64,000 nucleotides of DNA from a virus (IMGVR_UViG_3300021387_000463:299001-363000), one strand, 5' to 3'; positions 4,086 through 24,030 are shown, counted from the stretch's first letter. Notes: generated by a model from the sequence alone, not told the origin. Numbers and translations: made by a program.

Positions 4086-6401
4086 ATGGCAAAAAAGCGA
4101 TATATTAGACATTTGGAGTATTATGGTTTTCCAGACCAAAATGGATACTCTAGTGAGATAAACGGTGTTGACTTGTCAGACATCCGTGAGAAAAACAAGG
4201 AGCAAGACGAAGAAATCCAAGACCTTGAGGGTGAAAAGGCTGACAAGAAAGACCTTCTTTCACTTAGTGGAACTGTTGAAAACTTTATCACACGTCAATC
4301 AGAAATCAACCAAGAATTCGCTGATGCCATTAGTGGAATGTCTGGTGACATTGAGGAGCTAAAGAAAATTGACACTGAGTTTGCTGAACAACTTAGTGCA
4401 ATAACTAGTGGCGTAGATGAAGCGATGGATGCCATCGAGATTCTTGATGAGAGAGTTGATAATGTTGAGGACAATCTTAGCGGCTTAAGCGAGACTGTAA
4501 ACGAGATAATCGAGGATTACGCTAAAAAAGATGATGTTTATTCCAAGGAAGAAATAGACGATATGATTTCTAGCGGTTTCAGTGGATATGCAACACAGGA
4601 ATGGGTAGAGGAACAAGGTTATCTAACTGAGGAAAGCGGTGATACAAGATATGCTAAGATTGAAGACCTTCAAGATTTGGCTAATCAAGTTGAAAGTGCT
4701 GCAACAAATATTGACGAAATTAATGATAAGATTGATACACTGAATAATGACCTTAGTGCATTCAGTGATGATGTTTCTGATGCATTGTCTGACATTAACG
4801 ATGCAGTTAGTGGTATTAACAATTCTATCAATGATATCAATGATAAGGTGGATGGCATCACCAGTGACATTGGAGAGCTTGCTGAAATTGTAAGTGGTAA
4901 CACAAATGCAATTGGAGAGCTTAATGGACTTGTGGCTGAAAATGCTGAAGCCATAAATAATCTTGATGATAGAGTTGATGAACTTGAAGAAGCTGTAAGC
5001 GCATTGACTGCTGATGTAGAGGAACTTGATACTAAGAAAGCTGACAAATCTACAGTCTATGATTTGAGGGAAGAAATGTTACATGGTTTGAGTGAGCTTG
5101 AAAACAAGAAGGCTAACAAGACAGACCTTGAAGCTGTAAGTGGAGCTGTTGATGCCCTCGATGCTAAGATTGATGCTGAGATTGCAAGGTCAACAAGTGC
5201 TGATACTGCAATGCAGAACAAAATTGACGAACTTGATGCCGATGTACAGGAGGCTGTTGAGACAGTTGAATCTTATGGCGATAGGATAGATGAAGTTGAG
5301 AGGGGTCTCGCACAAGAGATAATCGACAGGAAGAACGGTGATATTGCACTCATTGGAACAAGTAGTGATGATACTGATGAGGATACAATTTGGGCAGCTA
5401 AGAACCTTGCTGAACAATACAAAGATGAGGCAATAGCAAGTGCTAAGACATATACCGATAACAAGATTTCAGTGGTTAATGGTGAAATTCAGAATATAGA
5501 AAATAGAATTGACCAGAAACTCACACATTATGCAACTGAGGCTTTCGTAATATCTGCTTGCAACGACACTGAGACTGAGGTAAGAAATGAATTTACAACA
5601 GCCATTAACAATGAGACCCAGAGAGCTGAACGTGCTGAATCAAATATTGAGGTTGAGATACAGTCATTGCTAGTACAGATTTTATCAAATAAGGACCATA
5701 TCTCGAACAATTCATCAAGGCTTAACGCTATAACAAGATGGCAAGGAACTAATCCAGAAGAATATGATGACAGTGGAAATGGCATACTTGATGTCCTTCA
5801 TAGAGAATTCCATGAATATGAGAAAACTCACGGTGCTATAAAAAATATAGAATTTGTTGATGGTAATCTTATAATTACATATGAAACTCCAGAAGGGGAG
5901 AAACAAGAAATTATTCCAATCAGTGAGTTAATAATTCTTGATGATTATTATAAAAAAGAAGAAACCGATGCACTTCTTGCTGAGAAACTTGATGCATCAG
6001 CATACACTGACATCAGTGAACAAGTAAGTGCAAATACTGACAACATAGAGGCATTAAGCGGTGATGTTGTCAACCTTGATTCAGCACTTGCAACACTAAT
6101 AGAGAAACTTGGGTATAAGAATAATGATACACTTATAACCAATAATGAGCATGAAGTTGCATTTGGAGAATATAATGTAAGTCACGAAAGTGAAGAATCT
6201 TCTGGACAAACCATATTCAGTATAGGTAATGGAACAGATGGCGAGAACAGAAGCAACGCTGTTGAGGTAAGGAAAAATGGCGATGTGTATCTTTGGATTG
6301 AAGGAGAATTCATGAACATTAATAAGCTTCTAGGACAGATAGCGCATGAAGTTTATGATAATGATTCGACACATAACAGTCATTTCTTTGATGGCGACTA
6401 A
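4086..6401 (+). CDS. Long coiled-coil fibre/whisker-like virion protein
   Basis: Extended acidic heptad repeats. The C-terminal module NNEHEVAFGEYNVS...IFSIGNGT...NAVEVRKNGDVY is also found three times in the 16538 fibre. Late motif at 4029. Confidence 0.65.
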   Translation: MAKKRYIRHLEYYGFPDQNGYSSEINGVDLSDIREKNKEQDEEIQDLEGEKADKKDLLSLSGTVENFITRQSEINQEFADAISGMSGDIEELKKIDTEFAEQLSAITSGVDEAMDAIEILDERVDNVEDNLSGLSETVNEIIEDYAKKDDVYSKEEIDDMISSGFSGYATQEWVEEQGYLTEESGDTRYAKIEDLQDLANQVESAATNIDEINDKIDTLNNDLSAFSDDVSDALSDINDAVSGINNSINDINDKVDGITSDIGELAEIVSGNTNAIGELNGLVAENAEAINNLDDRVDELEEAVSALTADVEELDTKKADKSTVYDLREEMLHGLSELENKKANKTDLEAVSGAVDALDAKIDAEIARSTSADTAMQNKIDELDADVQEAVETVESYGDRIDEVERGLAQEIIDRKNGDIALIGTSSDDTDEDTIWAAKNLAEQYKDEAIASAKTYTDNKISVVNGEIQNIENRIDQKLTHYATEAFVISACNDTETEVRNEFTTAINNETQRAERAESNIEVEIQSLLVQILSNKDHISNNSSRLNAITRWQGTNPEEYDDSGNGILDVLHREFHEYEKTHGAIKNIEFVDGNLIITYETPEGEKQEIIPISELIILDDYYKKEETDALLAEKLDASAYTDISEQVSANTDNIEALSGDVVNLDSALATLIEKLGYKNNDTLITNNEHEVAFGEYNVSHESEESSGQTIFSIGNGTDGENRSNAVEVRKNGDVYLWIEGEFMNINKLLGQIAHEVYDNDSTHNSHFFDGD

Positions 6402-6439
6402 TATGAATAATAATTTTCTTACAAAAAAAACATTATAAG

Positions 6440-8131
6440 ATGAAAAGAAAAACTAGAATGTATGAGCCTTGGGGCTATCAAGACGAGAATAATTACCAAG
6501 GAGCAGGAACTATCCTTGAAAATGATTTGGAATCATTCTTCGCTGATGCTAAGTATAATAAGGATGATAATAAAATCCATTTCCAGAACAAGGACGGTGA
6601 AGAAGTAGGCTCACTTGATGTGAACGAATTCGTCAAGTCTGATAGCATTGTCGAAGAGGCAAAATATGAAGATGGTAAAATCATAATCAAGTTTACCAAT
6701 GGTGATGTTATTACAATTAACGTTGAGGAACTTATTGATGAAAATGAATTTGTTGATGGTCTTCAAGTTATAGAAGGACAAGTTTCTGTAAAAAGAAATG
6801 CTGAGTCTGATAATTATTTCACAGTTGATACTGACGGCATTAAGATTGCTGGTATAAAGGCTGATATTGATGCTGAAGAAGCAAGGGCAACGTCTGCTGA
6901 AACAGCACTTGACGAGAAGATTGATGCTGAAATCGCAAGGGCAAGTGGCGAGGAACAGAGAATTGACGAGAAGATTGATGACGAAGTTGCACGTGCTGAA
7001 GCAGCAGAACAAGCACTTGATGAGAAGGTTAGTGTTGAAAAGGGACGTGCTGAAACTGCTGAAGCGAATCTTAGCAGAAGGGCTGATACGCTTAATGATG
7101 AACTTGATGCCGAAAAAACTGTAAGGGAATCAGAAGATGTAAAACTCGACAGAAAGATTAACACTGAAATTGATGATAGAAAAGCAGATGTTGATGAGGA
7201 AGAGGCTCGTGCAAAAGCAGCAGAACAAGCATTGCAAGGCGCAATTAATGATGAGAAAACACGTGCAGAGGCAAAAGAAACGGCTCTACAAGATTCAATC
7301 GATGCTGAGAAAGCAAGGGCACTTTCTGCTGAGACTGATTTGCAAGATGCAATTGACTTGAAGGCAGACAAGGAGACAACCTACACCAAGGAAGAGGTTG
7401 ATGCATTAATTGCTGAGAAAGAGGCTGAGATTGTTCAGATTAAGAAGGATTACACTGATTTGAAGGAAATTGTGGCTGAAATTGGTGGAAACGTAGAGTG
7501 GGGGGTTCCTGCTGACGGCACGTTCAACAATATGATGAAGAAGAGTGGTACTGTTAAATTAGGAGAGAACACAACAACATCAACATACGCTGGTGGAATT
7601 ACGTCTAAGAATGATACAACATTGAATTTAAACGGAAAGAACCTTACATTTAGTGGACAAACTACAACTAACCCTGGTATTATGACAAGAGGAAAGCAAA
7701 AACTTACCATTATGGGCAAGGGTACTATTGATGCTGCTGGACGTATTGCTGTTGAGGCAAATGGTGCTGATACAGTAATCAACTTAAGTGGTACAACTGG
7801 ATTCTTTGCTGCTGAACCTACTTATGTAACTGACAGAAGTGGTGGTGAACTTATCTATTGCTATCTTGGTACAATCAACATATATGCTGGTGTATTCAAG
7901 AACAACGGTGATGACAAGAAATTCTTATTGAACTGCTATGATGCTAATCGTGCAGATGGAACGGCTAAGATTGTTGTATATGGTGGCAAGTTCTATGACT
8001 TTGACCCAGGAAATAATACTGCTGAGGGACCTGGCACATCATTCCTTGCTGAAGGCTATCACACTGAGGCAAGCACTGTTATTGAAGAGGATGTTGAGCA
8101 CACTGTATATACGGTTAAGAAGGATGCTTAA
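6440..8131 (+). CDS. Coiled-coil fibre protein with a C-terminal beta-rich domain
   Basis: Repeats of DAE.ARA.AAE.AL followed by a G/T/N-rich beta-helix-like region. N-terminal YEPWGYQDENNY resembles LEYYGFPDQNGY of the 4086 gene. Confidence 0.65.
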   Translation: MKRKTRMYEPWGYQDENNYQGAGTILENDLESFFADAKYNKDDNKIHFQNKDGEEVGSLDVNEFVKSDSIVEEAKYEDGKIIIKFTNGDVITINVEELIDENEFVDGLQVIEGQVSVKRNAESDNYFTVDTDGIKIAGIKADIDAEEARATSAETALDEKIDAEIARASGEEQRIDEKIDDEVARAEAAEQALDEKVSVEKGRAETAEANLSRRADTLNDELDAEKTVRESEDVKLDRKINTEIDDRKADVDEEEARAKAAEQALQGAINDEKTRAEAKETALQDSIDAEKARALSAETDLQDAIDLKADKETTYTKEEVDALIAEKEAEIVQIKKDYTDLKEIVAEIGGNVEWGVPADGTFNNMMKKSGTVKLGENTTTSTYAGGITSKNDTTLNLNGKNLTFSGQTTTNPGIMTRGKQKLTIMGKGTIDAAGRIAVEANGADTVINLSGTTGFFAAEPTYVTDRSGGELIYCYLGTINIYAGVFKNNGDDKKFLLNCYDANRADGTAKIVVYGGKFYDFDPGNNTAEGPGTSFLAEGYHTEASTVIEEDVEHTVYTVKKDA

Positions 8132-8150
8132 TGAATGCATAATCTATAAT

Positions 8151-8205
8151 AAATGGGATAATCTTTATTGGCTATCCCATTTTTGTTTATGTGTGAAATA
8201 TTTAT
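8151..8205 (+). terminator. Terminator + late promoter cassette
   Basis: AAATGGGATA...TATCCCATTTTT hairpin followed by ATATTTAT (8198-8205); related to 11368-11420. Confidence 0.75.
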
Positions 8206-8248
8206 CTATAATGAAAATAACTTATTAAAAAATATTAAATAAAGAATT

Positions 8249-9373
8249 ATGGCAGTTTATTTAAAAGAATTCAGTACCCACTCTGAGTACGAACAGTACA
8301 TCAACGGTAGTGATGCAATACTACCTAATGTATCATTATGCGCAACAGAAGGTGATGTGTATTATAATCCTTATGTTGAACCACCTTTTTTCTGTAAACT
8401 TACATTAAATGATGGCAGTACAGTTGAACTTGAAGGTAGTGGAGTATTAACCTCTGATATGACAAGTGGCTATAAATCAACACTTATAAGTGCTGAAATT
8501 GGAGAATTATGTACAAGTATTGAGGGTTCTACTCTTATAAGAGATGCCACTTTCTCAAATTGTAGTGGTCTTACAAGTGTAACAATAGGTAATAGCGTTA
8601 CAAGTATCGGTAATGGTACTTTTCGGAATTGTAGTGGCCTTACAAGTGTAACAATAGGTAATGGTGTTACAAGTATTGGTAATAATGATTTCAATGGATG
8701 TAGTAGTCTTAGAAGTTGTACTATAGGTACTAGTGTTACAAGTATTGGTGAAGGTGCTTTCAGTGGCTGTAGTAGTCTTACAAGTATAGATATACCAAAC
8801 AGTGTTACAACTATTGGTCAGAATGCTTTCGAGAGATGTACTAGCCTTACAAGTGTGGTAATACCAGATAGTGTTACAAGTATTGGTAATGATGCTTTCT
8901 CATATTGTAGTAGTCTTACAAGTTGTACAATAGGTAGTGGCGTTACAAGTATTGGTACTTATGCTTTCTATGGTTGTAGCAGTCTTACAAGTATATCTAT
9001 ACCAAGTGGTGTTAAAACTATTAGTGGTAATACTTTCTATAATTGTAATGGTCTAACAAGTGTAACAATAGGTAATAGTGTTACAGAAATTGGACCTTTT
9101 GCTTTCAATGGATGTAGTAGTCTAACAAGTATAGACATACCAAATAGTGTTACAAGTATTGATAATGGTGCTTTCTATGATTGTAATGGTCTAACAAGTA
9201 TAACCGTAAGAGCAACAACGCCACCAAAATTAAATGTTTTTTATCATGGTGCTCCTAGAGCATTCGATAACACTAATGACTGTTCAATCTATGTTCCAAG
9301 TGGAAGTGTAGAAACATATAAGTCAGCAAGTGATTGGAGTACCTATGTGGATAGAATCCAAGCAATACAATAA
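8249..9373 (+). CDS. BspA-type leucine-rich-repeat (LRR_5) protein
   Basis: About 10 copies of the 23-aa repeat C..LTS(V/I).I(P/G)..VTSIG..AF and a C-cap IYVPSGSVETYKSA..WS; no signal peptide. Confidence 0.92.
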   Translation: MAVYLKEFSTHSEYEQYINGSDAILPNVSLCATEGDVYYNPYVEPPFFCKLTLNDGSTVELEGSGVLTSDMTSGYKSTLISAEIGELCTSIEGSTLIRDATFSNCSGLTSVTIGNSVTSIGNGTFRNCSGLTSVTIGNGVTSIGNNDFNGCSSLRSCTIGTSVTSIGEGAFSGCSSLTSIDIPNSVTTIGQNAFERCTSLTSVVIPDSVTSIGNDAFSYCSSLTSCTIGSGVTSIGTYAFYGCSSLTSISIPSGVKTISGNTFYNCNGLTSVTIGNSVTEIGPFAFNGCSSLTSIDIPNSVTSIDNGAFYDCNGLTSITVRATTPPKLNVFYHGAPRAFDNTNDCSIYVPSGSVETYKSASDWSTYVDRIQAIQ

Positions 9374-9455: not shown

Positions 9456-11336
9456 ATGGCTATAACTCAAAACAATGTAGAGAACGTTAAGTTCTTAAGA
9501 AACCAAAATCCTTTTGAGTCACGTGAAGCTGCACGTACCGCTTTGGAGAACAATAAGGGTGTAGCAGCCGATGGTACTGCGTTGCTTGCTCGTTATACGA
9601 CAAGTGGCGAGGTTAAGACAATCGTTGGTTTTGTTTATGTGACAGGCGAAACGCATAACATAACAATCTTCGATACTGAGGGCGCTAGTGGTGATGTTGA
9701 GGCATTAAGAAGAGAGATTAATGCTAAACTTGGCGATGGTGTTACATCAGCAAATACCGCAACAGCACAGCTCGCTGCATTAAGTGGTAATAACAGTTCA
9801 ACAAGTGCTGAGACATCCGTTGAAGGTGCTAAGAGGTACGCTGATGAATTAAAGAATCAGATGGATTACACTGGTGTTACAACTGGTGATGGCGTTTATG
9901 TAACAAATGTAACGCAGTCTGATGGTATTGTATCTGCAACAACAGCAACCCTTCCAACCGTAACTGGCGAGGTTGAGTCTAAGAAGGTTGTAATGAGCGT
10001 ATCTGAGGACAAGGGTGAAATTGCTGTCACTAAGGGCACTATTGAGTCTTCTGATAAGACTGTTGTAATAGGCGATTTAACTGAAGGTAATGGTATTGAT
10101 TTCAAAGTTAATATTGATAATGATACTCTTGTTGCTGATGAGAGTACTGGTGTAATAAGTGTTGCTTCTACTGCACTTACACAGTATGTTGGCGATGAGG
10201 ACACAATCCATATTTCTGCTGCTGATGCGCAGAACAACAAGACAGTTAGTTCACTATTGACAATTAAAGAAGTATCAACAGGTGTTCCAGATACCGTAGC
10301 ACATAGATATATGCTAGCTGGTACTGGTACAACTAAAATTGGTGAATACATCGACATTCCAAAAGATAGTGCTCTTGTAAATTTCTATCTTGGTCATGTT
10401 GATGACCTTTTGGAAGGCACAACAGCCCAGACTGAAGAATCAACAACTTCAACTGTAGTTCCAGGTAGTGGTGACACTGCACTTGTATGGATTATGCAAC
10501 TTGCTAATGGTAAGTACAAGCTTACAGCAGTAGACGTTCATTCATTTATTGATGAGGCTGAATTTGCAAGTGGTGTTACTTGGGATTCTACAGACAAGAA
10601 GGTTAAGGGCGTTGTTGACTCAACTTCAGAAAAGGATTCACAAAGCACTCCAGTTGATTTCTTGACAGTTGGAGAGAATGGCTTCAAGATTAGTGGAATT
10701 AAGGATGAAATTGATAGAAAGATTAATGTTCTTGATGCAACAGGTGGAACACAGACAATAGCAACTGACAAACATATTGCTGTTGAGGTTATTGAGGCTA
10801 ATGGCTTGATTACAACCGTTACCGTAACTGAGGACAACATTGCTGATGCTGATGACCTTGCAGAACTTAGTGGTAAAACAATTACAGCTATAACATCTAC
10901 AAATGGTAGTATTACAGCATCAATCAGTAATGAAGATGGTAACAAGACTGCTGATATTCAGACTGACGCTGACAAGATTCAGATGAGTGGCTTCTCTGCT
11001 GGTAACACTACTGCATTGAGTGGTATTGCTGAGTCTGATTCAATTGCAACCGCATTTGAGAAGACAAATACTGTTATCACAGAGAACGAGAGAGTTACTG
11101 CTGCTGCATTAACAGGACTTGATGGAAGACTTGATGTAGTTGAGGCTGAGTACATCAGTGGTGTATCTGTAAATGGTCATGATGTAACTGTTGCTAACAA
11201 GGTTGCTCCTATTTCAATCACTGCTGCGACTTCTGCTGCAACTGCTACAAGCACTGAGGCAATCGTTGTTGATACCGATGCAAATGGCAATATTACCCTT
11301 GGAATTGCAAATATTGATTGTGGCTACTATGCATAA
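9456..11336 (+). CDS. Putative fibre/decoration protein
   Basis: T/S/D-rich beta sequence; N-terminus paralogous to the 20937 gene (LRN...DG.A.LARY...T.VGF); ends IDCGYYA; late motif at 9397. Confidence 0.55.
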   Translation: MAITQNNVENVKFLRNQNPFESREAARTALENNKGVAADGTALLARYTTSGEVKTIVGFVYVTGETHNITIFDTEGASGDVEALRREINAKLGDGVTSANTATAQLAALSGNNSSTSAETSVEGAKRYADELKNQMDYTGVTTGDGVYVTNVTQSDGIVSATTATLPTVTGEVESKKVVMSVSEDKGEIAVTKGTIESSDKTVVIGDLTEGNGIDFKVNIDNDTLVADESTGVISVASTALTQYVGDEDTIHISAADAQNNKTVSSLLTIKEVSTGVPDTVAHRYMLAGTGTTKIGEYIDIPKDSALVNFYLGHVDDLLEGTTAQTEESTTSTVVPGSGDTALVWIMQLANGKYKLTAVDVHSFIDEAEFASGVTWDSTDKKVKGVVDSTSEKDSQSTPVDFLTVGENGFKISGIKDEIDRKINVLDATGGTQTIATDKHIAVEVIEANGLITTVTVTEDNIADADDLAELSGKTITAITSTNGSITASISNEDGNKTADIQTDADKIQMSGFSAGNTTALSGIAESDSIATAFEKTNTVITENERVTAAALTGLDGRLDVVEAEYISGVSVNGHDVTVANKVAPISITAATSAATATSTEAIVVDTDANGNITLGIANIDCGYYA

Positions 11337-11367
11337 TCTAAGTTTCTTTAAATAACTCTTTATATTA

Positions 11368-11439: not shown

Positions 11440-14400
11440 ATGAAATATTTTAGGATATTTAATTACACAAATGATTACATTGAATATATGGCACAAGAAG
11501 GTGCTGTAGTTCCAAATATATCATATTGTTCTGGAGATAGTAAGACGTATATAACAGCTGGTAAACCATCTCCAACATGCACTTTGGTTATAGAAGGAGC
11601 GTCAGAAATAATTGCTGAAACCTGTAAATATAACGCAATGTGCGGTGGTAATGATGTCACATCATCTGCCGTATGGAGCATTATAAGTGGTTCTGATTAT
11701 GCAACGATAGATGCAACAAACGGTAAGATTACAATTTCATCTACAGCAAGTGAATCTCCTGTTACAATACAAGCGGCATATAATGGTCAAACTGCAACGA
11801 AGGAAATAACATTGACATATCAAAGTGGTTCTTCTGCTGAAACAACAACTGAGGTTGTAACTGATGAAAGCGGAAACACCACAACAGTTGTCACAACAGT
11901 GACAGAGAATGAAGACGGTTCTTCAACTGAGGTTGTAGAGTCAGTTGTGACAGACAGTGAAGGAAATGTCATTGGTAGCACAGAGAAAAGCAAGGAAACA
12001 AATTCAGATGGCTCATATACAAGTAATGAGACAAACTATGATGCCAATGGTAATGCAACTGATGGTACTAACATAACTGGAGATACTGATGGCAACGTAA
12101 GCACACAAGATGTTAAATATGATGAAAGTGGCAATACAATTGTCACTGGATATGATATTGACACAAGCGGAAATCCACATGGAGTGAAGGAGTTTAGAGC
12201 AGATGGTGTTAATACAGAATACTATGCTCTTGATGTTACACAAGGCTTTGTGATGGATATTCACTTTACAATAGATTTTACAAATCAGCCACCAAATCAA
12301 AGTGACAATCATCATAACATAATCAATTCAAAGAGGGCAACGCCAGCGCCTTGGTATGGTTTTCAAGTAAGGCAAACTCAAACAAACAAGTATATACAAC
12401 TTGGTACACAGTTCTCAACTGGCAGTAATGCGAACACAACAATAACAACAACAAATGCAAACAAATATAATGGTTCATCAAACATATATGAATATAATTT
12501 GCATATAGTGTATAACCCAACTGCTAGTACAAATAAGTTTACTTGTGATGAACTAATCGGTAATGCATTCAACTATACATCAAACAATACATTCCCAGAC
12601 ATTGAGGATTTGAAATATATTAAGACAACAGTTGGCTGTGCATTGGATGAAAACGGAGACCCATTCAGATTCTCAAACATTGATGTGTTCAGTTTTTCAA
12701 TTAAGAAACTTACCAACGTTAGTGAGCCAGTAATAGATTGTGACGGTCAGTATATTACAATAACTTGTGAAACTGTAGGTGCTGACATTCATTATAGGCT
12801 TAATGAGGTTGGCGTATATGCTAAGTATACAGAGCCAATAGCGATTACTGCTGACACACTTGTTCAAGCATATGCTGAACTTGAAGGTGACAAGAGTAAT
12901 ACTGTAAGCAAGAACTGCTTATATGATAATGGTATCGCAACACCAGTTATCACTTGTGATGGAGAATATGTGTCAATCGCTTGTGCAACAACTGATGCTG
13001 AACTTTATTACAGAATGAACGAAACTGGAACGTATAGTGTATATACTGATTCATTTGAGATAACTGCAACAACAGTTGTTGAGGCATATGCTCAAGTTGG
13101 AACTGAGGTTGGACATACTGCAAAGGAAACATGTACTTATAGCCCTGTTGTATTGGTAGCCCCAACTGTTATCTTCAACGGAGAGGAAATATCTTTGGCT
13201 TGTGAGACAGCAAGTGCAACCATAAACTATAGATTAAACCAAGAAGGAACTTATCAAGTTTATACTACTCCAATAGTAATTACTGCTGATACTCTTGTTG
13301 AAACATATTCATCATATAGAGGACGTGTAAGTTCTGTTGTAACGCAAAACTGTGAATATAGTCCAGTACACCATTATGAAAATGACTATTTGACATTTAG
13401 AATAACAAGTGCAGGAACAATTTGTTGGAAATCTGTTGGAAGCGGATATGCGAAAACAATTGAGTATAGCCTTAACGGTGGAGAATGGACTTCCATAACA
13501 GCAGCATCAACACCACCATCGATAAATGTGGCGGCTGGTGATGTTATAAGATTCAAGGGAACAAATACATCATACGCTGGAAGTAAATCAAATTATGCTT
13601 CATTCGGAAAAGATACTAGTGGGTCTACAGACATAGGTTCAACTGCTCATTTTGTGGCTGAAGGTAATGTAATGTCACTCATTTATGGAGATAATTTCAT
13701 TGGAAATACAGCAATGACAGGAACATACAATTTCTGTTCATTATTTAAGCGTACAAATATAGAGTCTGCTGAGAATTTAGTATTACCGTCAACAACGTTG
13801 ACAGAATATTGCTATCGTGCAATGTTCAGTTGGTGTACCGAATTAGCAGTTGCTCCTCAATTACCAGCCACAACATTGGCAAAAGGTGTTTATTGGTATA
13901 TGTTTGAGAAGTGTGCAATAACTGAAGCACCAGAACTTCTTGCTGAACATTTAGTAGCAGAATGTTATGGGGATATGTTTATTAATTGCGCAAGCCTTAA
14001 CTTTATTAAATGTATGGCAATTGATGGATTTAACACAACCAACTGTAAGCAGAATTGGGTTAGTGGTGTTACATCAAGCGGTACATTCGTAAAGGATAGT
14101 GGAGTTTCTGTAGATACTTGGAGTAGAGGAGCAAACGGTATTCCAACCAATTGGTTAGTGTATGATAACGTTCCAGTTGTTCCACCTACAATTACATATG
14201 ATGGATTCAGTGTAATAACATTAACTTGTGATACACAAGGTGCTGACATATATTATAGATTGAATAATAGTGGGGAATATAGTGCATATACAACCGCTAT
14301 AACGATAACAGCAGATACCATTATACAGACATATTCAGAATTAAACGGACAAGAGAGTAGAACTGTGTCTCAGACTTGTCAATATGTAAGTGATGTACCT

Positions 14401-16375: not shown

Positions 16376-16429
16376 ATGAGGGGTTGTTTAAATACAGTTC
16401 CTCATTTTTATTTCTCATCAGATATTTAT
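16376..16429 (+). repeat. 54-bp terminator/late-promoter direct repeat, copy 1
   Basis: 50/54 identical to 22802-22855 by manual alignment; contains the ATGAGG...CCTCAT hairpin, a T-tract and ATATTTAT. Confidence 0.9.
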
Positions 16430-16537: not shown

Positions 16538-19500
16538 ATGGGCAAAAATGCTGATTTTGTCTCTCATAAGAAGAGCAAGCAAAAAAATCAAGATGGTAGT
16601 CCTAAACTACCAGTAGCATCTGCATTGGTGGAAGGTGAGATAGCCATCAACTTCGCTGAAAACGTTGAAACATTATCAATCAAGAATGAAAGCGGTGATG
16701 TCGTTACATTCTCAAGTGACAACTATTACACTGAGAAGAAACTTGGAAGCGGATTCACTGGTGAGAATAGTGGTGTAACCGTTACTGACACAATATTATG
16801 GGTTAGTGGAACAGGCGAAAATGCCATTGTGCAGAAAGGCGGTGGAAACACAGCAAGTGGAAAACTATCAGTAGCTATGGGTAGCGGCACTACAGCAAGT
16901 GGAGATTATTCTGTTACTGAAGGACGTATTACAACAGCAAGTGGCGATTACTCTCATGCTGAAGGGTATAATACAAAAGCAAATGGTATTTCTTCTCACG
17001 CTGAAGGTGCTAGTACAACAGCAAGTGGTCCTCAATCTCACGCTGAAGGAGGTAATACAAAAGCAAATGGTCAATATTCTCACGCTGAAGGAAATAGCAC
17101 AAGTGCAACTAGTCAGTCATCTCACGCTGAAGGAAATTATACAAAAGCGAATGGGCAATATTCACACGCTGAAGGAAGTGGCACAGTAGCAAGTGGTCAG
17201 TCTTCTCACGCTGAAGGAGGTAATACAAAAGCAAATGGTCAATATTCTCACGCTGAAGGACAAAGTACTAGTGCAACTAGTCAATCATCCCACGCTGAAG
17301 GTAGTGGTACAACTGCAAATGGCACTTGTTCTCACTCAGAAGGATATAATACAACTGCAAATGGTGTCTTTTCTCATGCTGAAGGTGATAATACAACAGC
17401 AAATAATCAGTCAGAGCACGCAAGTGGACAATATAACGTAAGTAACAGTGCTTCAACTACGTTTGGTGATAGTGGCAATACACTATTCAGTGTCGGTAAT
17501 GGTACTGCTAATAATGCAAGGCACAACGCTTTTGAGATTAGGCAGAATGGTGATATCTACATAACCAGTGGTAGTTCTGATATTAAGTTACAAGATTATA
17601 TTGGAAGTCCAATAGATGTTGACCAAGTATTGGATGATACGACATCCGCAAGCACAAATCCTGTATCAAGCAAGGCTGTATATAAGGCAGCGACTGATAA
17701 TGAACTTGTATGGACGAATGCATTTGTTGCAATGAGTGGTACTGTAAGTGCGCATACTGCAAATACTGAGATACACGTAACTGCTGCCGACAAGACGGCT
17801 TGGGTCAATAAGATTGGCTATGCTGAATACGATTCAAACGATAAGAAGATTAATTTCTATAAGAATGATACAGATACCGCAACATCGATTTGTTATATTG
17901 ATGCAACCGATTTCATCAAGGATGGCATGGTACAGAATGTTGAAATAAAGGATGTAACAAGTGGTGGAAGTCAAGTTACTTGCCTTGTAATATCATTCAA
18001 TACAGATGCTGGAAAGCAAGATATAAACGTGCCTATAAGTGACATATTTGATGCTTCAAATTATTATACAAAATCTCAGACAAGCGGTGCAACAGAAATA
18101 TCAAATGCATTGAATGGCCTCGATGCAAGGAAACTTGATGCAAGTGCATATACACCAAGCGTTGAACTTTGGGTAAGAGGAACAGGATTGAACTCTGTTG
18201 TTCTTAAGGGTTCAAGTAGCACAGCAAGTGGTAACTTCTCTGTGGCAGAAGGCAGTCAAACACAAGCGATTGGTAACTATTCACATGCTGAAGGCTATTT
18301 TACAACTGCACGTGGTAGCGATTCTCATGCTGAAGGATGTAATACAAAAGCAAATGGCTATGCATCTCACGCTGAAGGTAGTGGTACAACAGCAAGTGGT
18401 GAACGTTCTCACGCTGAAGGATATAATACAAAGGCAAGTGGTTATTATTCTCACGCAGAAGGATATGATACAACTGCAAGTAATTATTCTCACGCAGAAG
18501 GATATAATACAAAGGCAAGTGGTGATTATTCTCATGCTGAAGGATATGGTACAACAGCAAGTGGTGAACGTTCTCACGCTGAAGGAAGAAGTACAAGTGC
18601 AACATCATATCAAGCACACGCAGAAGGATATTATACAAAAGCAAATGGCTATGCATCTCACGCTGAAGGTAGTGGTACAACAGCAAGTGGCATTTATTCT
18701 CACGCTGAAGGAAATAATACAACAGCAAATAATCAGTCAGAGCACGCAAGTGGACAATATAACGTAAGTAACAGTGCTTCAACTACGTTTGGTGATAGCG
18801 GTAACACATTATTCTCAGTTGGTAACGGTACATCAAGCTCAGCACGTCACAATGCGTTTGAGATTAGGCAGAATGGAGATATTTATATAACTAGTGGTAG
18901 TTCTGATATTAAGTTGCAGGATTACATTGGAGGAAGTGTAGAGACGGTAACAGCAATCACTCCTTCAAATAGTGGTTCAACAAGCCCAATTGCAACGAAG
19001 GTTGTTGCTGAGAATGAATTGGCAGTATCTGCTGCATTGAATGACCTCGATGCAAGGAAGCTTGATGCAAGTGCATATACGCCAACAGATTTAAGCAATT
19101 ATTATACAAAATCTCAGACAAGCGGTGCAACAGAAATATCAAATGCATTGAATGGCCTCGATACAAGGAAACTTGATGTATCGGCATATACACCAAGCGT
19201 TGAACTTTGGGTAAGCGGAACAGGTTTAAACTCTGTTGTGGTTAAGGGTTCAAGTGGTACTGCAAGTGGAAACTACTCTGTGGCAGAAGGATTTAAAACA
19301 ATAGCAAGTGGTGAATCTTCTCACGCTGAAGGATATGGTACAAAAGCAAGTTTTTATTACAGCCACGCTGAAGGTAGTGGTACAACAGCAAGTAACAATT
19401 CTAGCCACGCTGAAGGAAGTAATACAAAAGCAATGGGTGAGTCTTCTCACGCAGAAGGACATTATACAGAAGCACATAACAGTTCTAGCCACGCTGAAGG

Positions 19501-19903
19501 AGACCATACAACAGCAAATGGTCCTTATTCTCACGCAGAAGGTTCTTATACAAAAGCAAATGGTTCATATTCACACGCAGAAGGTGGTAATACAATAACA
19601 AATAATCAGTCAGAGCACGCAAGTGGTAGATATAATGTAAGTTCTAAGGCTAGCAATACTTTTGGCAACAGTGGAAATACTTTATTTAGTGTTGGCAATG
19701 GTACTGATAATAATGCAAGGCACAACGCTTTTGAAATACGTCAGAATGGTGATATCTACATAACAAGTGGTGGTACGACATCAAGTGAAAGTATTAAGTT
19801 ACAAGACAGCATTGGAAGTAAGGCTGATAAGTCAACCACATATACAAAGTCTGAAATCGATGATATGATTGGTGACATTGAAACATTATTGGCTGCAATA
19901 TAA
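16538..19903 (+). CDS. Tail-fibre-like protein with a T4 gp37-type N-terminus and three blocks of YadA-head-like 14-aa repeats
   Basis: PVASALVEGEIAINF...IKNESGDVV resembles the gp37 N-terminal LAEGELAIN motif; more than 30 SHAEG..T.A.G repeats. Start at 16538 chosen over 16487 for its A-rich context. Confidence 0.82.
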   Translation: MGKNADFVSHKKSKQKNQDGSPKLPVASALVEGEIAINFAENVETLSIKNESGDVVTFSSDNYYTEKKLGSGFTGENSGVTVTDTILWVSGTGENAIVQKGGGNTASGKLSVAMGSGTTASGDYSVTEGRITTASGDYSHAEGYNTKANGISSHAEGASTTASGPQSHAEGGNTKANGQYSHAEGNSTSATSQSSHAEGNYTKANGQYSHAEGSGTVASGQSSHAEGGNTKANGQYSHAEGQSTSATSQSSHAEGSGTTANGTCSHSEGYNTTANGVFSHAEGDNTTANNQSEHASGQYNVSNSASTTFGDSGNTLFSVGNGTANNARHNAFEIRQNGDIYITSGSSDIKLQDYIGSPIDVDQVLDDTTSASTNPVSSKAVYKAATDNELVWTNAFVAMSGTVSAHTANTEIHVTAADKTAWVNKIGYAEYDSNDKKINFYKNDTDTATSICYIDATDFIKDGMVQNVEIKDVTSGGSQVTCLVISFNTDAGKQDINVPISDIFDASNYYTKSQTSGATEISNALNGLDARKLDASAYTPSVELWVRGTGLNSVVLKGSSSTASGNFSVAEGSQTQAIGNYSHAEGYFTTARGSDSHAEGCNTKANGYASHAEGSGTTASGERSHAEGYNTKASGYYSHAEGYDTTASNYSHAEGYNTKASGDYSHAEGYGTTASGERSHAEGRSTSATSYQAHAEGYYTKANGYASHAEGSGTTASGIYSHAEGNNTTANNQSEHASGQYNVSNSASTTFGDSGNTLFSVGNGTSSSARHNAFEIRQNGDIYITSGSSDIKLQDYIGGSVETVTAITPSNSGSTSPIATKVVAENELAVSAALNDLDARKLDASAYTPTDLSNYYTKSQTSGATEISNALNGLDTRKLDVSAYTPSVELWVSGTGLNSVVVKGSSGTASGNYSVAEGFKTIASGESSHAEGYGTKASFYYSHAEGSGTTASNNSSHAEGSNTKAMGESSHAEGHYTEAHNSSSHAEGDHTTANGPYSHAEGSYTKANGSYSHAEGGNTITNNQSEHASGRYNVSSKASNTFGNSGNTLFSVGNGTDNNARHNAFEIRQNGDIYITSGGTTSSESIKLQDSIGSKADKSTTYTKSEIDDMIGDIETLLAAI

Positions 19904-19911
19904 TAAGTAAT

Positions 19912-20061
19912 ATGTGTATAATAAAGTATATTAAGAAATTATTGAAATGTGATTGTGTATCCGTTTCAGAATTCGAATCAAATAAAGATAAGATTTCGGC
20001 AGCATTGAAAGACTTAAATGATAGAATCGGTGCTGCTGAAATAAAACTAAAAGGCTTATAA
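19912..20061 (+). CDS. 49-aa ORF missing from the track
   Basis: MCIIKYIKKLLKCDCVSVSEFESNKDKISAALKDLNDRIGAAEIKLKGL fills the gap between two genes; ISAALKDLNDR matches VSAALNDLDAR in the upstream fibre. Confidence 0.55.
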   Translation: MCIIKYIKKLLKCDCVSVSEFESNKDKISAALKDLNDRIGAAEIKLKGL

Positions 20062-20081
20062 ATTCTAAAATATAATATATT

Positions 20082-20756
20082 ATGAGTATAGCAAGTGAAA
20101 TATCAAGATTACAAACAGCAAAGGCTGATATAAAAACTGCACTTGAAAATAAAGGAATAACTGTACCAAGTAGTACCAAGATAGATGGATATGCACAATT
20201 GATTAACGGTATACCCACAGCAGACCCTATGATTGATAACCACTATTATCGTGACCTTGGACTTCCAAGTGGCACAAAGTGGGCTACAATGAACGTTGGT
20301 GCTTCATCAGAAACGGATTATGGTAACTTCTATCAATATGGTAAGGGTGCTGACCAATATGCTGCAACAAGTGGACAATCTGATTATAGTGGTACTGAAA
20401 ACCCATTGGCGACAAGTGCTGATACAGCAGCTCAAGTATGGGGTGGTAATTGGCATATGCCAACAAAGGCTCAGTTTGAGGAATTGACCGCAAATACCAC
20501 TTACACTTGGACTACCGTTAATGGAACTAATGGCGGTTTGTTTACCTCTAACATCAACGGCAACTCTATCTATTTTCCTGCCGCTGGTATCTGGTTCGGT
20601 GGTAGTCACTACGATGAGGGTTCGTACGGCTATGTTTGGAGTTCATCGCCTGATGCTAGTCGCCTCGCCTTCAGCTTGCACTTCCGCAGTGGAGACAAGG
20701 GCGTGTACAACGACAGCCGTGAGTGCGGCTTCTCGGTGCGCCCTGTGCTTGGTTGA
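20082..20756 (+). CDS. C-type-lectin-fold protein, probable DGR target (receptor-binding tip)
   Basis: DLGLPSGTKWATMNVGA, WGGNWHMPT, FPAAG, G..WSSS and terminal G.SVRPV motifs typical of Bacteroidota DGR targets. Confidence 0.85.
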   Translation: MSIASEISRLQTAKADIKTALENKGITVPSSTKIDGYAQLINGIPTADPMIDNHYYRDLGLPSGTKWATMNVGASSETDYGNFYQYGKGADQYAATSGQSDYSGTENPLATSADTAAQVWGGNWHMPTKAQFEELTANTTYTWTTVNGTNGGLFTSNINGNSIYFPAAGIWFGGSHYDEGSYGYVWSSSPDASRLAFSLHFRSGDKGVYNDSRECGFSVRPVLG

Positions 20757-20760
20757 CGAG
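20585..20760 (+). other. Putative DGR variable region (VR) and IMH
   Basis: Abrupt rise in GC and a dense run of NNC codons (ATC, TTC, CAC, TAC, CGC, CTC, AGC, GAC, TGC), as expected from mutagenised AAC template codons; GC-rich invariant end CGGTGCGCCCTGTG. Confidence 0.75.
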
Positions 20761-20761
20761 C

Positions 20762-20796
20762 CAAACTGACGTTTGCTTCAACACAGCTAACGCTGT
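20762..20796 (+). promoter_or_regulatory. Two short hairpins downstream of the VR (candidate DGR homing cis-elements)
   Basis: CAAAC-TGAC-GTTTG (20762-20775) and ACAGC-TAAC-GCTGT (20783-20796). Confidence 0.55.
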
Positions 20797-20844
20797 ATGG
20801 TAATTCATCTTAATAAAGCCAAAACAGGATTAAATTATAAAAAA

Positions 20845-20899
20845 AGTTTGCCCTAGGCTTGTGCTTGGGGCAAATTTTTATGTTATATAAAATATTTAT
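20845..20899 (+). terminator. Terminator + late promoter cassette
   Basis: TTTGCCCTAGGC-TTGT-GCTTGGGGCAAATTTTT followed by ATATTTAT at 20892. Confidence 0.75.
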
Positions 20900-20936
20900 A
20901 TATTAGATAATAAGACAAATTAAATATTTAAAAAAT

Positions 20937-22757
20937 ATGGCAGTAAAAAATCTTTATTCATTGGGACTATTACGTAACGGTAAGGTGTACCCAAGCAAGC
21001 AACTTGCTTATCAAGCTTTTGAGCAAGGTACAAATGACGGTGTTGCAAAGTTGGCACGTTATCTTGACGCAAGTCTTGGTGGAGACCCAATCATCAGAAC
21101 GTTGGTTGGCTTCTACGCAAATGCTGAAGAAATGGCAGATAATGGTGGTGGGCAGTCACATTATACCATTCTTGATATCGAAGGCAGTGCAGGAGAGATA
21201 GAGGAACTTAAGAAAGCGGTTGCTAAAATTAATGAGACAATCGGTGATGGTATTAGCGGCACTACTCTTACAGACGCAATCAACGACATCAATGACAGAA
21301 TCGGTAGCGGTTTCTCTGAGCATTTTACAGTAGCAGACGCATTGGTTGCACTTGCTGAAGAGTTATCTGATGCATTAACAGTTTCTCTTGATGTTGCAGG
21401 AGAGCCTACAAGCGGTTTTCTTAAGACTTATATCCTTTCACAAGGTACAGGTACAGGAAAGACTGAAATAGGAAGAATCGACATTCCAAAGGACTTGGTG
21501 GTAACAGAAGGTAAGTTAGTACATGGTTATTGGAGTGGCGATACATTTGCAGAGGATGAGGAAGGACCTGACACGGCTATCAAACTTGTGATTGCAAACC
21601 AAGAAGAGCCTGTATATATCAATACTAAAGACCTTGTTGATTACTATACAGCAGGTAATGGTATTGATATTGATAACACCCACAATACAATTTCAATCAA
21701 GTACAATACTCACAGTGAGGAATTCCTTGTTGTAGATGAGGATGGTATCAGAGTTGAGGGCATACAGGCAGCAATCGACAAGAAGGCTGACGAAGAGAGA
21801 CTTGAGGCAAGTGATGGCATTTCAATCGCTTCAAACAAGGTTAAGGCTGTTGCAGCAGGATATTCAGCTCCAGCAATCAAGAACCCAATTACCGTTGACA
21901 AGGACGGCATTAAGTTCGCAAATGTGTTGGATTGTGGATTCTTCGATGACGAGACAAAGGTTGCAGCAACAGCAGAGGAAATCAATGCAATCACAGACCC
22001 ACAGAATACTGACGTGTTCATCAGTGGAAATGAGGCATTGAACGCACTTGCAGCAAAGAAGACATTCAAGAACCTTGAAATTGCAAACGTTGAGGCAGCA
22101 CAGCAAGTTAACCTTGCAGCGGTTGAGTCAATAGCACTTGATGGTGTTGAGGTAACTGGTGACAAGGGTTCTTCAAACGGATATTTCTTGGTAGATGCTC
22201 CAAAGGTTGATGTTTCAAACATCACTATTGCAGATGGTGCAAAGCCATATAACGTATTTGAGGAAGTTGGTGCTGGTACTGATTCATTTAACGCTTCAAA
22301 CGTGAAGGTTAATGACGTTGCACTTAAGCACAATGTATTTAACATCTACAGGCCAAATAACGATGCTGTAATCAACATTTCAGACGTTAATCTTAACTTG
22401 AATGTTAACAACTCAAACGCATTGAGACTTGCAAACTACAAGAACGCTACTGGTGTTACAGTTAACTTCGAGAATGTTTCTTGGACATATGAGAACACAC
22501 CAAATATCGAGTCAGCAGACTTCGGATGGGCAGGTTTGATTATCTATCAGCCAGCCACTACTGACGTTGCACTTGGTGGTGACTTGTCAAAGGTTCAGAC
22601 TTGGACATTCAACTTCAAGAACTGTAAGTACAATGGCGTTAAGGTAACTGAGAACAACTTCGGTAAGAAGAACCAAGTATTCTACCTTTATAACATTAAC
22701 AAAACTGGTGCAATCACAGACCCTGTTGAAAATGGTTTGGTATTGAACTTTGCATAA
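20937..22757 (+). CDS. Putative fibre/decoration protein with a C-terminal beta-helix-like domain
   Basis: N-terminus and IG.IDIPKD motif shared with the 9456 gene; internal LDCGFF motif followed by an N/V-rich beta domain. Confidence 0.55.
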   Translation: MAVKNLYSLGLLRNGKVYPSKQLAYQAFEQGTNDGVAKLARYLDASLGGDPIIRTLVGFYANAEEMADNGGGQSHYTILDIEGSAGEIEELKKAVAKINETIGDGISGTTLTDAINDINDRIGSGFSEHFTVADALVALAEELSDALTVSLDVAGEPTSGFLKTYILSQGTGTGKTEIGRIDIPKDLVVTEGKLVHGYWSGDTFAEDEEGPDTAIKLVIANQEEPVYINTKDLVDYYTAGNGIDIDNTHNTISIKYNTHSEEFLVVDEDGIRVEGIQAAIDKKADEERLEASDGISIASNKVKAVAAGYSAPAIKNPITVDKDGIKFANVLDCGFFDDETKVAATAEEINAITDPQNTDVFISGNEALNALAAKKTFKNLEIANVEAAQQVNLAAVESIALDGVEVTGDKGSSNGYFLVDAPKVDVSNITIADGAKPYNVFEEVGAGTDSFNASNVKVNDVALKHNVFNIYRPNNDAVINISDVNLNLNVNNSNALRLANYKNATGVTVNFENVSWTYENTPNIESADFGWAGLIIYQPATTDVALGGDLSKVQTWTFNFKNCKYNGVKVTENNFGKKNQVFYLYNINKTGAITDPVENGLVLNFA

Positions 22758-22801
22758 GTTTTGTTGATACAAAATAACGTTCTTACATAATCATACAAAA
22801 G

Positions 22802-22855
22802 ATGAGGGATTGTTTAAATACAGTTCCTCATTTTTATTTTACATAAGATATTTAT
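22802..22855 (+). repeat. 54-bp terminator/late-promoter direct repeat, copy 2
   Basis: 50/54 identical to 16376-16429. Confidence 0.9.
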
Positions 22856-22896
22856 TACTATATAAGAATAATAAGTTTAATAACAATATAACAATT

Positions 22897-24030
22897 ATGA
22901 GTCTATTTCTAAAACTTTTTAATACAACAGCAGAATATAACGCTTATACAGCAGATACAAGCACTTTTATTAAACCAAATGTATCTGTATGCAAAGATGA
23001 TTTATCTCTTGTGTATTATAATCCACTCAGATGCGATGAAACAAGTGTATATGAGATTATAGGAGAACCTTCATATCCTTCTACTGTAGATGGTGCTGAT
23101 TCATCATTTGACATCGCTGTCAACTATAGAATAACCGATATTAATACAGCGTGTACAGAGACCGTTACAGAAGGAACTGATATAGTAACTGTAGAAATTG
23201 GTGTTAATCCAAGTGGAAGTGCAAGTAGGACTGTAAGCGGTACTGTTGATTATCACGGCACTGAGATTGAGTATAGTATTACTCAGAGCAAGTTTGAGGC
23301 AAAGATAACTGCTAAGTTCGATGTAACTGATACAAGTAATCCAACGCAAATTGGATATAATCAATATACAAGTGGTTTCAGTAAAATTGAGATTGACGGT
23401 GTTGCACAACCATCAGTCGTAAGTGCGTATACGTTTAGTACAACAGGTGAACATACAGTTAAGTATACATTAGCAGACCCAACAAGTATTGGTGCTTATG
23501 CTTTCACTAGTTGTAGTGGTCTTACAAGTATAGTTATACCAGATAGTGTTACAAGTATTAAAGGTAGTGCTTTCATGTATTGTAGTGGTCTTACAAGTAT
23601 AGTTATACCAGATAGTGTTACAAGTATTGGTAATAGTGTTTTCCAAGGTTGTAAAAGTCTTACAAGTTGTACAATAGGTAGTGGAGTTACAACTATTGGT
23701 TCTCAAGCTTTCAATAATTGTACTAGTCTTACAAGTATAGTTATACCAGATAGTGTTACAAGTATTAATGGTAGTGCTTTCATGTATTGTAGGGGTCTTG
23801 AAAGTTGTACAATAGGTAGTGGTATTACAAGCATTGGTACTCAAGCTTTCAGAGACTGTAGAGTTCTTACGAGTATAACAATAGAAGCAACAACGCCACC
23901 AACTTTAGGAAGTGATGTATTTTTTGATGCCAATAAGTGTACAATCTATGTACCAAGTGGTAGCGTAGATGCATATAAGGCAGCAAGTGGTTGGAGTACT
24001 TATGCAAGTAGAATACAAGCGATACCTTAA
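22897..24030 (+). CDS. Second BspA-type LRR_5 protein
   Basis: 23-aa LRR repeats and the same C-cap as the 8249 gene. Start at ATG 22897, because the longer track ORF runs through the terminator/promoter. Confidence 0.92.
   Translation: MSLFLKLFNTTAEYNAYTADTSTFIKPNVSVCKDDLSLVYYNPLRCDETSVYEIIGEPSYPSTVDGADSSFDIAVNYRITDINTACTETVTEGTDIVTVEIGVNPSGSASRTVSGTVDYHGTEIEYSITQSKFEAKITAKFDVTDTSNPTQIGYNQYTSGFSKIEIDGVAQPSVVSAYTFSTTGEHTVKYTLADPTSIGAYAFTSCSGLTSIVIPDSVTSIKGSAFMYCSGLTSIVIPDSVTSIGNSVFQGCKSLTSCTIGSGVTTIGSQAFNNCTSLTSIVIPDSVTSINGSAFMYCRGLESCTIGSGITSIGTQAFRDCRVLTSITIEATTPPTLGSDVFFDANKCTIYVPSGSVDAYKAASGWSTYASRIQAIP

Follow-up and report, generated by a model that had tools for sequence, protein, structure and literature searches.

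A candidate modular fiber and adhesin cassette in a huge T4-like rumen phage and a predicted N-terminal mini-domain found across phage lineages

INTRODUCTION

Receptor-binding proteins (RBPs) whose distal parts are swappable behind a short, conserved docking N-terminus are established in the Klebsiella phages KP32, KP34, Menlow, and ΦK64-1, as well as in K1-5/SP6, G7C, and CBA120, and the jumbo phage ΦK64-1 has 11 RBPs (Latka et al. 2019, PMC6872550; see also PMC13352976). In ΦcrAss001, a phage of gut Bacteroides, the head fibers gp21 (residues 1-38) and gp29 (residues 1-58) and the tail fiber gp22 (residues 1-26) dock by their N-termini (Bayfield et al. 2023, PMC10172136). Taken as analogues, these systems establish a design in which a virion carries several RBPs, each with a docking N-terminus and a distal domain that can be exchanged. 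Here we analyze a 20-kb island of ten genes at positions 4086-24030 of a 64,000-nt stretch of viral DNA (the window; IMGVR_UViG_3300021387_000463:299001-363000), whose products, named below by the first position of their genes, appear to be assembled from a small set of shared modules. An earlier note on this DNA had presented the island as an undescribed plug-and-socket display system in which N-terminal modules of three classes (A, B, and C) mount interchangeable adhesins and enzymes on the virion. The modularity and the swappable distal parts stood up to analysis. Short N-terminal docking is, however, already an established principle, and no socket was found, neither as a T4 gp9/10_N domain nor as a gene family that co-occurs with class A across six complete genomes.

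Like the Klebsiella anchor-branch systems, the island clusters several RBP-like genes in a structural region (here for a tailspike fold, a YadA-like fiber, and a glycosidase) and places a short conserved N-terminus (class A, or the anchor of 6440) on unrelated distal domains that are exchanged, as they are horizontally in Klebsiella phages. The Klebsiella payloads, however, are depolymerase-type RBPs whose model form is the trimeric beta-helix tailspike, whereas those found here are mostly leucine-rich repeat (LRR), lectin-like, and glycoside hydrolase family 2 (GH2) proteins. The socket in those systems is a T4 gp10-like domain, whereas a scan of this genome with PF07880 gave no match; their docking peptides are specific to a phage group, whereas class A crosses unrelated phage lineages; and their binding is supported experimentally, whereas docking by the island proteins is a prediction. 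The class A tag, at ~40 residues, is comparable in size to the 26-58 residues by which ΦcrAss001 proteins dock, with a small binding domain beyond. The ΦcrAss001 tags, in contrast, are confined to their lineage and have a defined binding site (a hexon pocket or the tail hub), while class A comes with many payloads and in many copies within a genome. The island differs from these systems in its range of payloads (LRR, lectin-like, GH2, and BACON), a family of 41-residue tags with a predicted fold, their spread across unrelated phages, and their links to mobile elements.

T-even phages encode a fiber tip, gp37, and a separate adhesin, gp38. The island likewise has fiber genes followed by genes for compact binding proteins (6440 by 8249, 9456 by 11440, and 20937 by 22897), and fibers of the 9456 type end at a junction motif where 20937 runs on into a distal domain of its own. 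We know of no homology of the compact island proteins to gp38, and the junction motif (DCGYY) did not co-occur with class A in the other genomes compared.

RESULTS

Shared modules link the proteins of the island

The earlier note had assigned class A to the N-termini of 8249, 11440, and 22897, and an external profile and a shuffle test both gave significant support to this assignment. The profile, built from database homologues only, detected all three N-termini among 3,878 six-frame segments of the genome (8249, expectation value [E] 3.6e-27; 22897, E 1.4e-15; 11440, E 4.3e-7), with the next match at E 0.019. When the 11440 and 8249 N-termini were aligned, the Smith-Waterman score of 64 was reached by 0 of 2000 shuffles (mean 22, standard deviation 4.6), and only the three class A N-termini scored at such a level among the 521 N-termini of the genome. 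A hidden Markov model (HMM) made from just the 8249 and 22897 N-termini missed 11440, which the deeper external profile detected.

Class B was also found to be common to 9456 and 20937, which match over their N-termini (E 2.5e-9) and again over another region (E 5.5e-6) that contains the IDIPKD and DCG(Y/F)(Y/F) motifs. The FS(I/V)GNGT module links 4086, which has one copy, to 16538, which has three, at E 1.4e-12 to 3.7e-11; the modules of 4086 match 16538 at E 1.4e-12 and 3.2e-6. Class C, proposed for 4086 and 6440, was weak when the two were compared as a pair (7 of 2000 shuffles reached the score) but emerged more clearly from a profile-profile comparison (hhalign P 3.5e-6, probability 87%), and every homologue in the two families has the motif at residue 1. 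The proposed ENE...AAL..LD.R link among 9456, 16538, and a 49-aa open reading frame (ORF) was not supported: the alignments were not significant (E 0.017 to 3.7), and a regular expression derived from the motif matches only its three source places in the genome, which makes that test circular. A further module of ~90 aa with predicted beta structure (module M), which the earlier note had missed, links 4086, 6440, 9456, 16538, and 20937 (E 2.5e-4 to 3e-6) and is repeated many times in related phages.

One might read these likenesses as chance or as recent local duplication without modular exchange. Indeed, 8249 and 22897 are full-length paralogues (40% identity, E 4.6e-66), single pairwise alignments of the ENE motif and of the class C pair fall short of significance, and the two-sequence HMM overlooked one of the three tags. 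Against this, the external profile finds all three class A N-termini, the tag occurs in 1,468 protein clusters with different payloads, class B and FSxGNGT align at E 1e-9 to 1e-12, and one and the same payload occurs with different N-termini. The significance of the alignments and profiles refutes this reading for class A, class B, and FSxGNGT, and we consider it very improbable as an account of the shared motifs overall.

Class A is a large family of predicted N-terminal mini-domains

A profile search of 1.84 billion representative proteins returned 1,468 clusters with class A at E<=1e-3 and 185 at E<=1e-10. In ~141 of the 150 best matches the tag starts within the first 8 residues. Its consensus is M..YLK.F.TH.EYE.YI.G.D.ILPNVS.C....VHYNP, in which F8, Y14, P26, N27, and S29 are invariant. 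The AlphaFold2 model of 8249 (predicted local distance difference test [pLDDT] 94) shows the tag as a strand (residues 5-8), a helix (11-18), and two further strands (27-31 and 36-40), and class A is accordingly modeled as a self-folding beta-alpha-beta-beta mini-domain of ~41 residues that is almost always N-terminal. Within the proteins scanned, no Pfam, NCBIfam, or PHROG match fell on the tag; no PDB chain matched the tag profile, and an Atlas search with the tag gave no usable match. Judged by these searches, class A is an uncharacterized domain family absent from Pfam, NCBIfam, PHROG, and PDB.

The payloads behind class A had been called interchangeable, and relatives do carry several types, so the tag does not always come with the same payload. 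Among the best 150 matches, Pfam domains were LRR_5 (68), Lcl_C (5), Big_2 (3), Fib_succ_major (2), SusF/E (1), and Hexapep (1); among 32 complete proteins from viral loci, they were LRR_5 (22), Lcl_C (5), BACON (2), Big_2 (2), and GH2 (1). Class A is thereby found on at least five types of payload (LRR, C-type-lectin-like, GH2, BACON, and immunoglobulin-like). These Pfam counts replaced a single-linkage clustering of payloads, which was uninformative (143 of 158 merged in one cluster).

In loci of other phages and of metagenome-assembled genomes (MAGs), poly-G runs of 10-13 or more encode the loop of the class A tag (L118:4150-4290, L088:3015-3150, L101:2020-2160, L102:4060-4200, and L082:300-440), and several class A genes with such a run are out of frame at it. 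Either phase variation or an assembly error at the homopolymer could account for this. No G or C run of >=7 is present in the window itself.

Relatives combine the modules differently

The lectin payload of 20082 occurs at 60-70% identity behind a class A N-terminus in three loci of other genomes (L099, L096, and L092) and behind an unrelated N-terminus here. In one relative, the LRR-like middle domain of 11440 comes directly behind class A, and another has a class A and GH2 protein with a shorter stalk than that of 11440. Residues 1-180 of 6440 are 46-79% identical across 357 proteins that range from 330 to 984 aa in length, and homologues of 4086 with the identical type of N-terminus are present in L005, L001, and L110. 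These sequence comparisons support the view that the proteins are shared-module mosaics, with conserved N-termini on different distal parts. The content of the island as a whole varies as well: in the closest complete relative, whose major capsid protein (MCP) is 90% identical, a 29-kb interval between the MCP and sheath genes has different content and no class A.

The pairing of 9456 and 20937 as carriers of interchangeable payloads was not upheld. They belong instead to the conserved core of the lineage, and each has hundreds of homologues that barely vary in length (221 for 9456, mostly 590-640 aa; >1000 for 20937, the best 120 of which are 73-98% identical and ~600 aa long). Together with 6440, they behave as classical lineage-restricted fibers or tailspikes with conserved N-terminal anchors. 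Of 120 proteins of the 9456 family, 104 have (D/N)CG[YFW][YFW] as their last residues, whereas members of the 20937 family carry this motif at about residue 330 and continue into a beta-helix domain. Since it is terminal in one family and internal in the other, it marks a module junction, and it looks like a conserved fiber junction or end cap.

Class A genes lie near tail genes in relatives and near mobile elements in other contigs

Class A genes adjoin homologues of sheath or baseplate-region genes in six loci (L096, L099, L100, L107, L121, and L122), and in at least seven cases in related contigs a class A gene directly follows a fiber gene. Outside of phage contigs, a degenerate DNA pattern for the class A motif detected it in contigs of MAGs, mainly from ruminant gut or rumen samples. 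Several of the class A copies in bacterial contigs are truncated or frameshifted.

In the window, an IS1595-family transposase gene is convergent with the last class A gene, 22897. Transposase homologues 69-75% identical to it directly follow class A genes, again in convergent orientation, in two MAG contigs (L081, 1740-2735; L091, 4518-5528). At the DNA level, homology with L091 takes in the transposase and no more than ~90 nt at the end of the LRR gene, and a search for terminal inverted repeats around the last class A gene and the transposase gave no clear ones.

Other neighbors of class A genes recur. Homologues of the HNH/homing-endonuclease gene downstream of the sheath gene in the window are close to class A genes in L114, L117, and L119. 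Orthologues (36-38% identity) of the two-domain glycosyltransferase gene between the transposase and sheath genes, which is single-copy in the genome, adjoin class A genes in the huge phages L125 (5720-7429 and 1635-4385) and L131 (7040-8719). In G001, a complete 353-kb genome, class A genes (L127 and L128; 107000-116000 and 147500-156500) lie amid paralogues of 264-777 aa that share the N-terminus MNVND[CS]FSHELGGDTL..., and these paralogues may, from their sequences, form a second family of tags with variable payloads.

Genomic setting, gene products, and promoter-like DNA

The window corresponds to bases 299,001-363,000 of one 412,753-bp viral record with a CheckV completeness of 100%. With its T4-type capsid and sheath genes, the source is, by sequence, a complete huge T4-like rumen phage; relatives with capsid proteins 50-94% identical are numerous in IMG/VR. 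A 34.6-kb contig in a Bacteroidales MAG bin (G014:C10, the contig of L090) carries a capsid gene (27401-29389) that is 69% identical and a class A gene. It is probably a phage contig that was mis-binned, and its capsid gene gives a weak hint of Bacteroidales as the host.

All ten genes that were said to follow the MCP gene in the same orientation were recovered as plus-strand ORFs (4086, 6440, 8249, 9456, 11440, 16538, 19912, 20082, 20937, and 22897), and the island lies between the scaffold and MCP genes and the tail sheath gene (Table 1). The gene preceding the MCP gene encodes an acidic, scaffold-like protein. Because tblastn matches of the MCP to T4-like (gp23-like) capsid genes come in two pieces, which cover about half of the protein, the MCP appears to contain a large insertion. 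Farther downstream are a baseplate-hub-like gene at 38956 and, at 49694, a gene for a 2141-aa protein with a tail-lysozyme domain. No match to the T4 gp9/10_N branching domain (PF07880, T4_gp9_10_N) was found in the complete genome with this model, which does not span gp10 domains 2-3.

Table 1. Coordinates of the island genes, their flanking genes, and associated DNA motifs (positions in the window)
Position	Strand	Feature	Details
1892..3931	+	MCP, T4 gp23 type, 679 aa, with large insertion	phrog_138 E 1.8e-66
4026..4037; also 192, 11410, 20889, 20921, 27002, 27901, 31814(-)	+	Promoter-like motif TAAATATTTATA	9 matches vs 2.1 expected
4086..6401	+	771-aa fiber, mostly coiled coil	Coiled-coil-type Pfam matches; class C motif 4086-4172; long coiled coil; module M 5832-6008; one FSxGNGT unit 6120-6305
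6440..8131	+	563-aa fiber	Conserved N-terminal third (~180 aa, 6440-6979), including class C motif and module M 6620-6886; distal part variable, with coiled coil and C-terminal domain of no known family
8249..9373	+	Class A tag (8249-8371) and BspA-type LRR, adhesin-like, 374 aa	LRR_5 E 2e-75
9456..11336	+	Class B fiber, 626 aa, no known family	N-terminal domain 9474-9746; module M 10491-10805; terminal DCGYY 11316-11330
11440..16365	+	Class A and GH2 protein, 1641 aa	Tag 11440-11553; chitobiase/Fn3-associated-type beta domains; LRR-like 13363-13998; GH2 14395-16329
16376..16429; second copy 22802-22855, 93% identical	+	54-nt terminator-plus-promoter-like repeat	Repeat family D9
16538..19903	+	YadA-head-like repeat fiber, 1121 aa	Head and FSxGNGT units 17387-17563, 18713-18889, 19595-19774
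19912..20061	+	49-aa ORF, doubtful gene	No family match
20082..20756	+	C-type-lectin-like (Lcl_C/Fib_succ_major) protein, 224 aa, with its own non-class-A N-terminus	Sub-threshold Pfam/NCBIfam
20937..22757	+	Conserved tailspike-like protein, 606 aa	Class B N-terminus 20949-21257; module M 21519-21800; DCGFF 21930-21944; beta-helix 21936-22754
22897..24030	+	Class A tag (22897-23025), beta domain, and BspA-type LRR, 377 aa	LRR_5 E 5.1e-42
24067..25134	-	IS1595-family transposase, convergent with 22897	DDE_Tnp_IS1595 E 3e-43 and zinc ribbon
25471..26991	-	Two-domain glycosyltransferase (GT92 and DUF4422)	Domain matches
27955..31236	+	Tail sheath gene	phrog_23 E 3.5e-55
33449-35098	-	HNH/homing-endonuclease gene	phrog_559 E 1.2e-140

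The payload types named in the earlier note (LRR, glycosidase, YadA repeats, lectin, and beta-helix) were confirmed for all but the lectin domain, whose scores fall short of the Pfam cut-offs. The LRR_5 (PF13306) gathering cut-off of 27.7 bits was exceeded by 8249 (251 bits) and 22897 (143 bits), and 16538 matched YadA_head (PF05658) at E 3e-9 (37.5 bits against a cut-off of 25). Protein 16538 also matched phrog_25468 (E 5.6e-109) and phrog_3279, annotated as "tail fiber protein" (E 4.1e-7), and its N-terminus resembles tail-fiber N-termini. For 11440, scores exceeded the Pfam cut-offs for Glyco_hydro_2_C (E 7.7e-24, 84.8 bits; cut-off 21), Glyco_hydro_2_N (28.2 bits; cut-off 28), and Glyco_hydro_2 (33.7 bits; cut-off 23), and the match to the beta-glucuronidase LacZ4 model NF050095, at 274 bits, was under its cut-off. 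The protein also contains WGLSNE (residue 1354) and YSEYG (residue 1451), which we take to be the catalytic Glu motifs (acid/base and nucleophile) of GH2 enzymes. With three domains and both motifs, 11440 is a predicted member of GH2. The lectin-like domain of 20082 scored 23-25 bits against Pfam cut-offs of 34-35 and 21 bits against 41.65 for TIGR02145, while its class A-bearing homologues reach Lcl_C at E 6e-13.

In the model of 20937, residues 334-606 form a right-handed parallel beta-helix (pLDDT ~85-90). Its closest structural match was the cyanophage Pam1 tailspike 7eea (Z score 16.9 over 235 residues), followed by many tailspike depolymerases, and phage tailspikes after 7eea scored 12.7-14.0 among the 50 matches listed. 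The modeled distal part of 20937 thus has a tailspike beta-helix fold, from which enzymatic activity does not follow. The monomer model of residues 1-333, which include the class B N-terminus, was of low confidence. A homologue of 20937 adjoins the sheath gene in L099. Atlas matches for 20937 (Mtd_N and tailspike families) are leads only, and PDB sequence searches with 9456, 20937, and 6440 gave nothing meaningful.

The N-terminus of 20082 had no match elsewhere on search. We also considered the C-terminus of 20082 (20500-20800) as the target of a diversity-generating retroelement and rejected this, as the complete genome has no PF00078 reverse transcriptase and blastn (word size 7) found no second copy. 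A search of related loci gave no conserved homologue of the 49-aa ORF at 19912 (best E 0.069). The earlier note had reported that the island proteins lack signal peptides, and this fits a hydropathy scan (in place of a dedicated predictor), in which no N-terminal hydrophobic 12-residue window exceeded 1.6 on the Kyte-Doolittle scale.

The promoter-like motif TAAATATTTATA precedes 4086, 11440, and 20937 as well as the scaffold and sheath genes, and 0 of 100 shuffles reached its nine matches. Genome-wide, 14 of 34 matches fall at 280-340 kb, a range that includes the island. Gene 8249 is preceded by a 72-nt region (8196-8267) that matches the region before the sheath gene (27902-27973) at 75% identity. 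Among the DNA repeats, D8 and D12 are the families recorded for these promoter-like sequences. The two copies of the 54-nt repeat flank the block from 16538 to 20937, and 16538 itself carries the DNA repeat families D1, D3, and D5.

DISCUSSION

We consider it probable that the island is a hypervariable, recombination-driven cassette of fibers and adhesins of a huge rumen phage. Its genes, probably expressed late, would be of two kinds. One kind would encode long fiber or tailspike proteins (4086, 6440, 9456, 16538, and 20937) assembled from a shared kit of short N-terminal anchors (classes B and C), the ~90-aa beta module, YadA-head/FSxGNGT units, and the DCGYY junction. The other would encode compact proteins that bind or cleave glycans (the LRR proteins 8249 and 22897, the GH2 protein 11440, and the lectin 20082), three of which start with class A. 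Recombination at module borders would swap distal domains and also N-termini, which would give each phage its own multivalent set of host- and glycan-binding proteins. Attachment to the virion by the N-terminal module is likely for the lineage-restricted class B and C fiber anchors. For class A, a role in virion attachment or assembly is the leading reading, which we hold only tentatively because no partner was found. The tail or baseplate is more likely than the capsid as the mounting site, given the tailspike fold of 20937 and the tail-gene neighbors in relatives. In favor of virion display are the place of the island between head and tail genes, the promoter-like motif and the 72-nt region that its genes have in common with scaffold or sheath genes, the fiber and tail genes beside class A in relatives, and payloads of extracellular type that come without export signals. 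As no socket was found and class A is unlike a lineage anchor, such display is no more than plausible.

Several features of its distribution weigh against class A as a part of the virion. The complete genome G001 has four class A genes and is without a detectable homologue of the MCP, of 20937, or of the 6440 anchor and module M, and without a DCG[YF][YF] motif; blastp between G001 and the source genome gave 33 shared protein segments, none of them structural, and no sheath homologue. In the complete huge phages G001, G002, and G004, the 4-6 class A genes per genome are scattered, several of them amid glycosyltransferase, nuclease, and endonuclease-like genes. When presence and absence were compared across six complete genomes (G000, G001, G002, and G004 vs G003 and G006), no family other than the class A proteins tracked class A. 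Bacterial MAG contigs have class A genes too, next to IS1595 transposases and among neighbors that look bacterial. We rejected 20937, the 6440 anchor with module M, the DCG[YF][YF] motif, and this MCP type as sockets, each being missing in at least one class A-positive genome or present in class A-negative ones. The class C anchor does behave as a lineage-specific anchor should: T4-like relatives have it whether or not they carry class A, and G001 lacks it. Being scattered, found across lineages, and without a co-occurring partner, class A is therefore unlike a lineage-specific anchor.

These observations could mean that the class A proteins are mobile accessory ("moron") adhesins or enzymes rather than virion parts and that only 4086, 6440, 9456, 16538, and 20937 are structural. 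The tag would then be a portable domain that oligomerizes or binds a host-cell component common to many rumen Bacteroidales, and the proteins would have their effect at the infected cell, inside or on it, or once lysis had set them free. Such a role would suit a tag that is conserved across phages with no detectable structural proteins in common and no phage partner co-occurring in the six genomes, whose genes sit among non-structural genes elsewhere, next to IS1595 transposases and homing-endonuclease-like genes and in bacterial contigs. Class A is also absent from 6 of 10 related huge phages, including one with a 90% identical capsid protein, and is therefore dispensable. Yet LRR, lectin, BACON, and GH2 domains act extracellularly and the N-termini do not resemble export signals, which leaves incorporation into the virion as the simplest exit. 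Moreover, class A genes often come right after fiber genes and inside tail or baseplate clusters, 8249 has an upstream region in common with the sheath gene, and the damaged copies in bacterial contigs are what stray insertions would give. We regard a purely accessory role as somewhat unlikely. It is rather unlikely, in our view, that class A is a lineage-independent portable "plug" that mounts or assembles LRR, lectin, BACON, and glycosidase modules via a generic socket in unrelated rumen phages (a structural feature, a glycan, or tag-tag contact), with genes spread by IS1595- or homing-endonuclease-linked transfer and, in some phages, switched by poly-G runs. Display on the capsid, giving a "hairy" head, is improbable. 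Short N-termini would dock in capsomer pockets, as in the ΦcrAss001 head fibers and T4 Hoc, with 4086, 6440, and perhaps class A as the first candidates. The genes for 4086 and 6440 directly follow the MCP gene, the class C segment is very short and confined to the N-terminus, the large MCP insertion could form a pocket, and gp21 and gp29 of ΦcrAss001 do bind hexon pockets through residues 1-38 and 1-58 (PMC10172136). Gene adjacency is weak evidence, however, and 20937 has a tailspike fold and adjoins the sheath gene in relatives, where the neighbors of class A and class B genes are homologues of genes near the baseplate hub; class A is also present in G001, which is without this MCP type.

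If the island is the fiber and adhesin cassette that we favor, a single huge phage encodes at least nine proteins that probably bind surfaces or cut glycans, all put together from a few kinds of parts. To our knowledge, huge rumen and gut phages have not been cultured, and their means of host recognition are not known. The class A tag defines a domain family of >1,400 protein clusters for which databases have no description. Should the tag not be a mounting device, its spread over unrelated phages and bacterial genomes would need another explanation. If it is one, the tag would make it simple to find accessory host-binding proteins in metagenomes, would offer a handle on the host range of uncultured phages, and might serve as a natural display tag.

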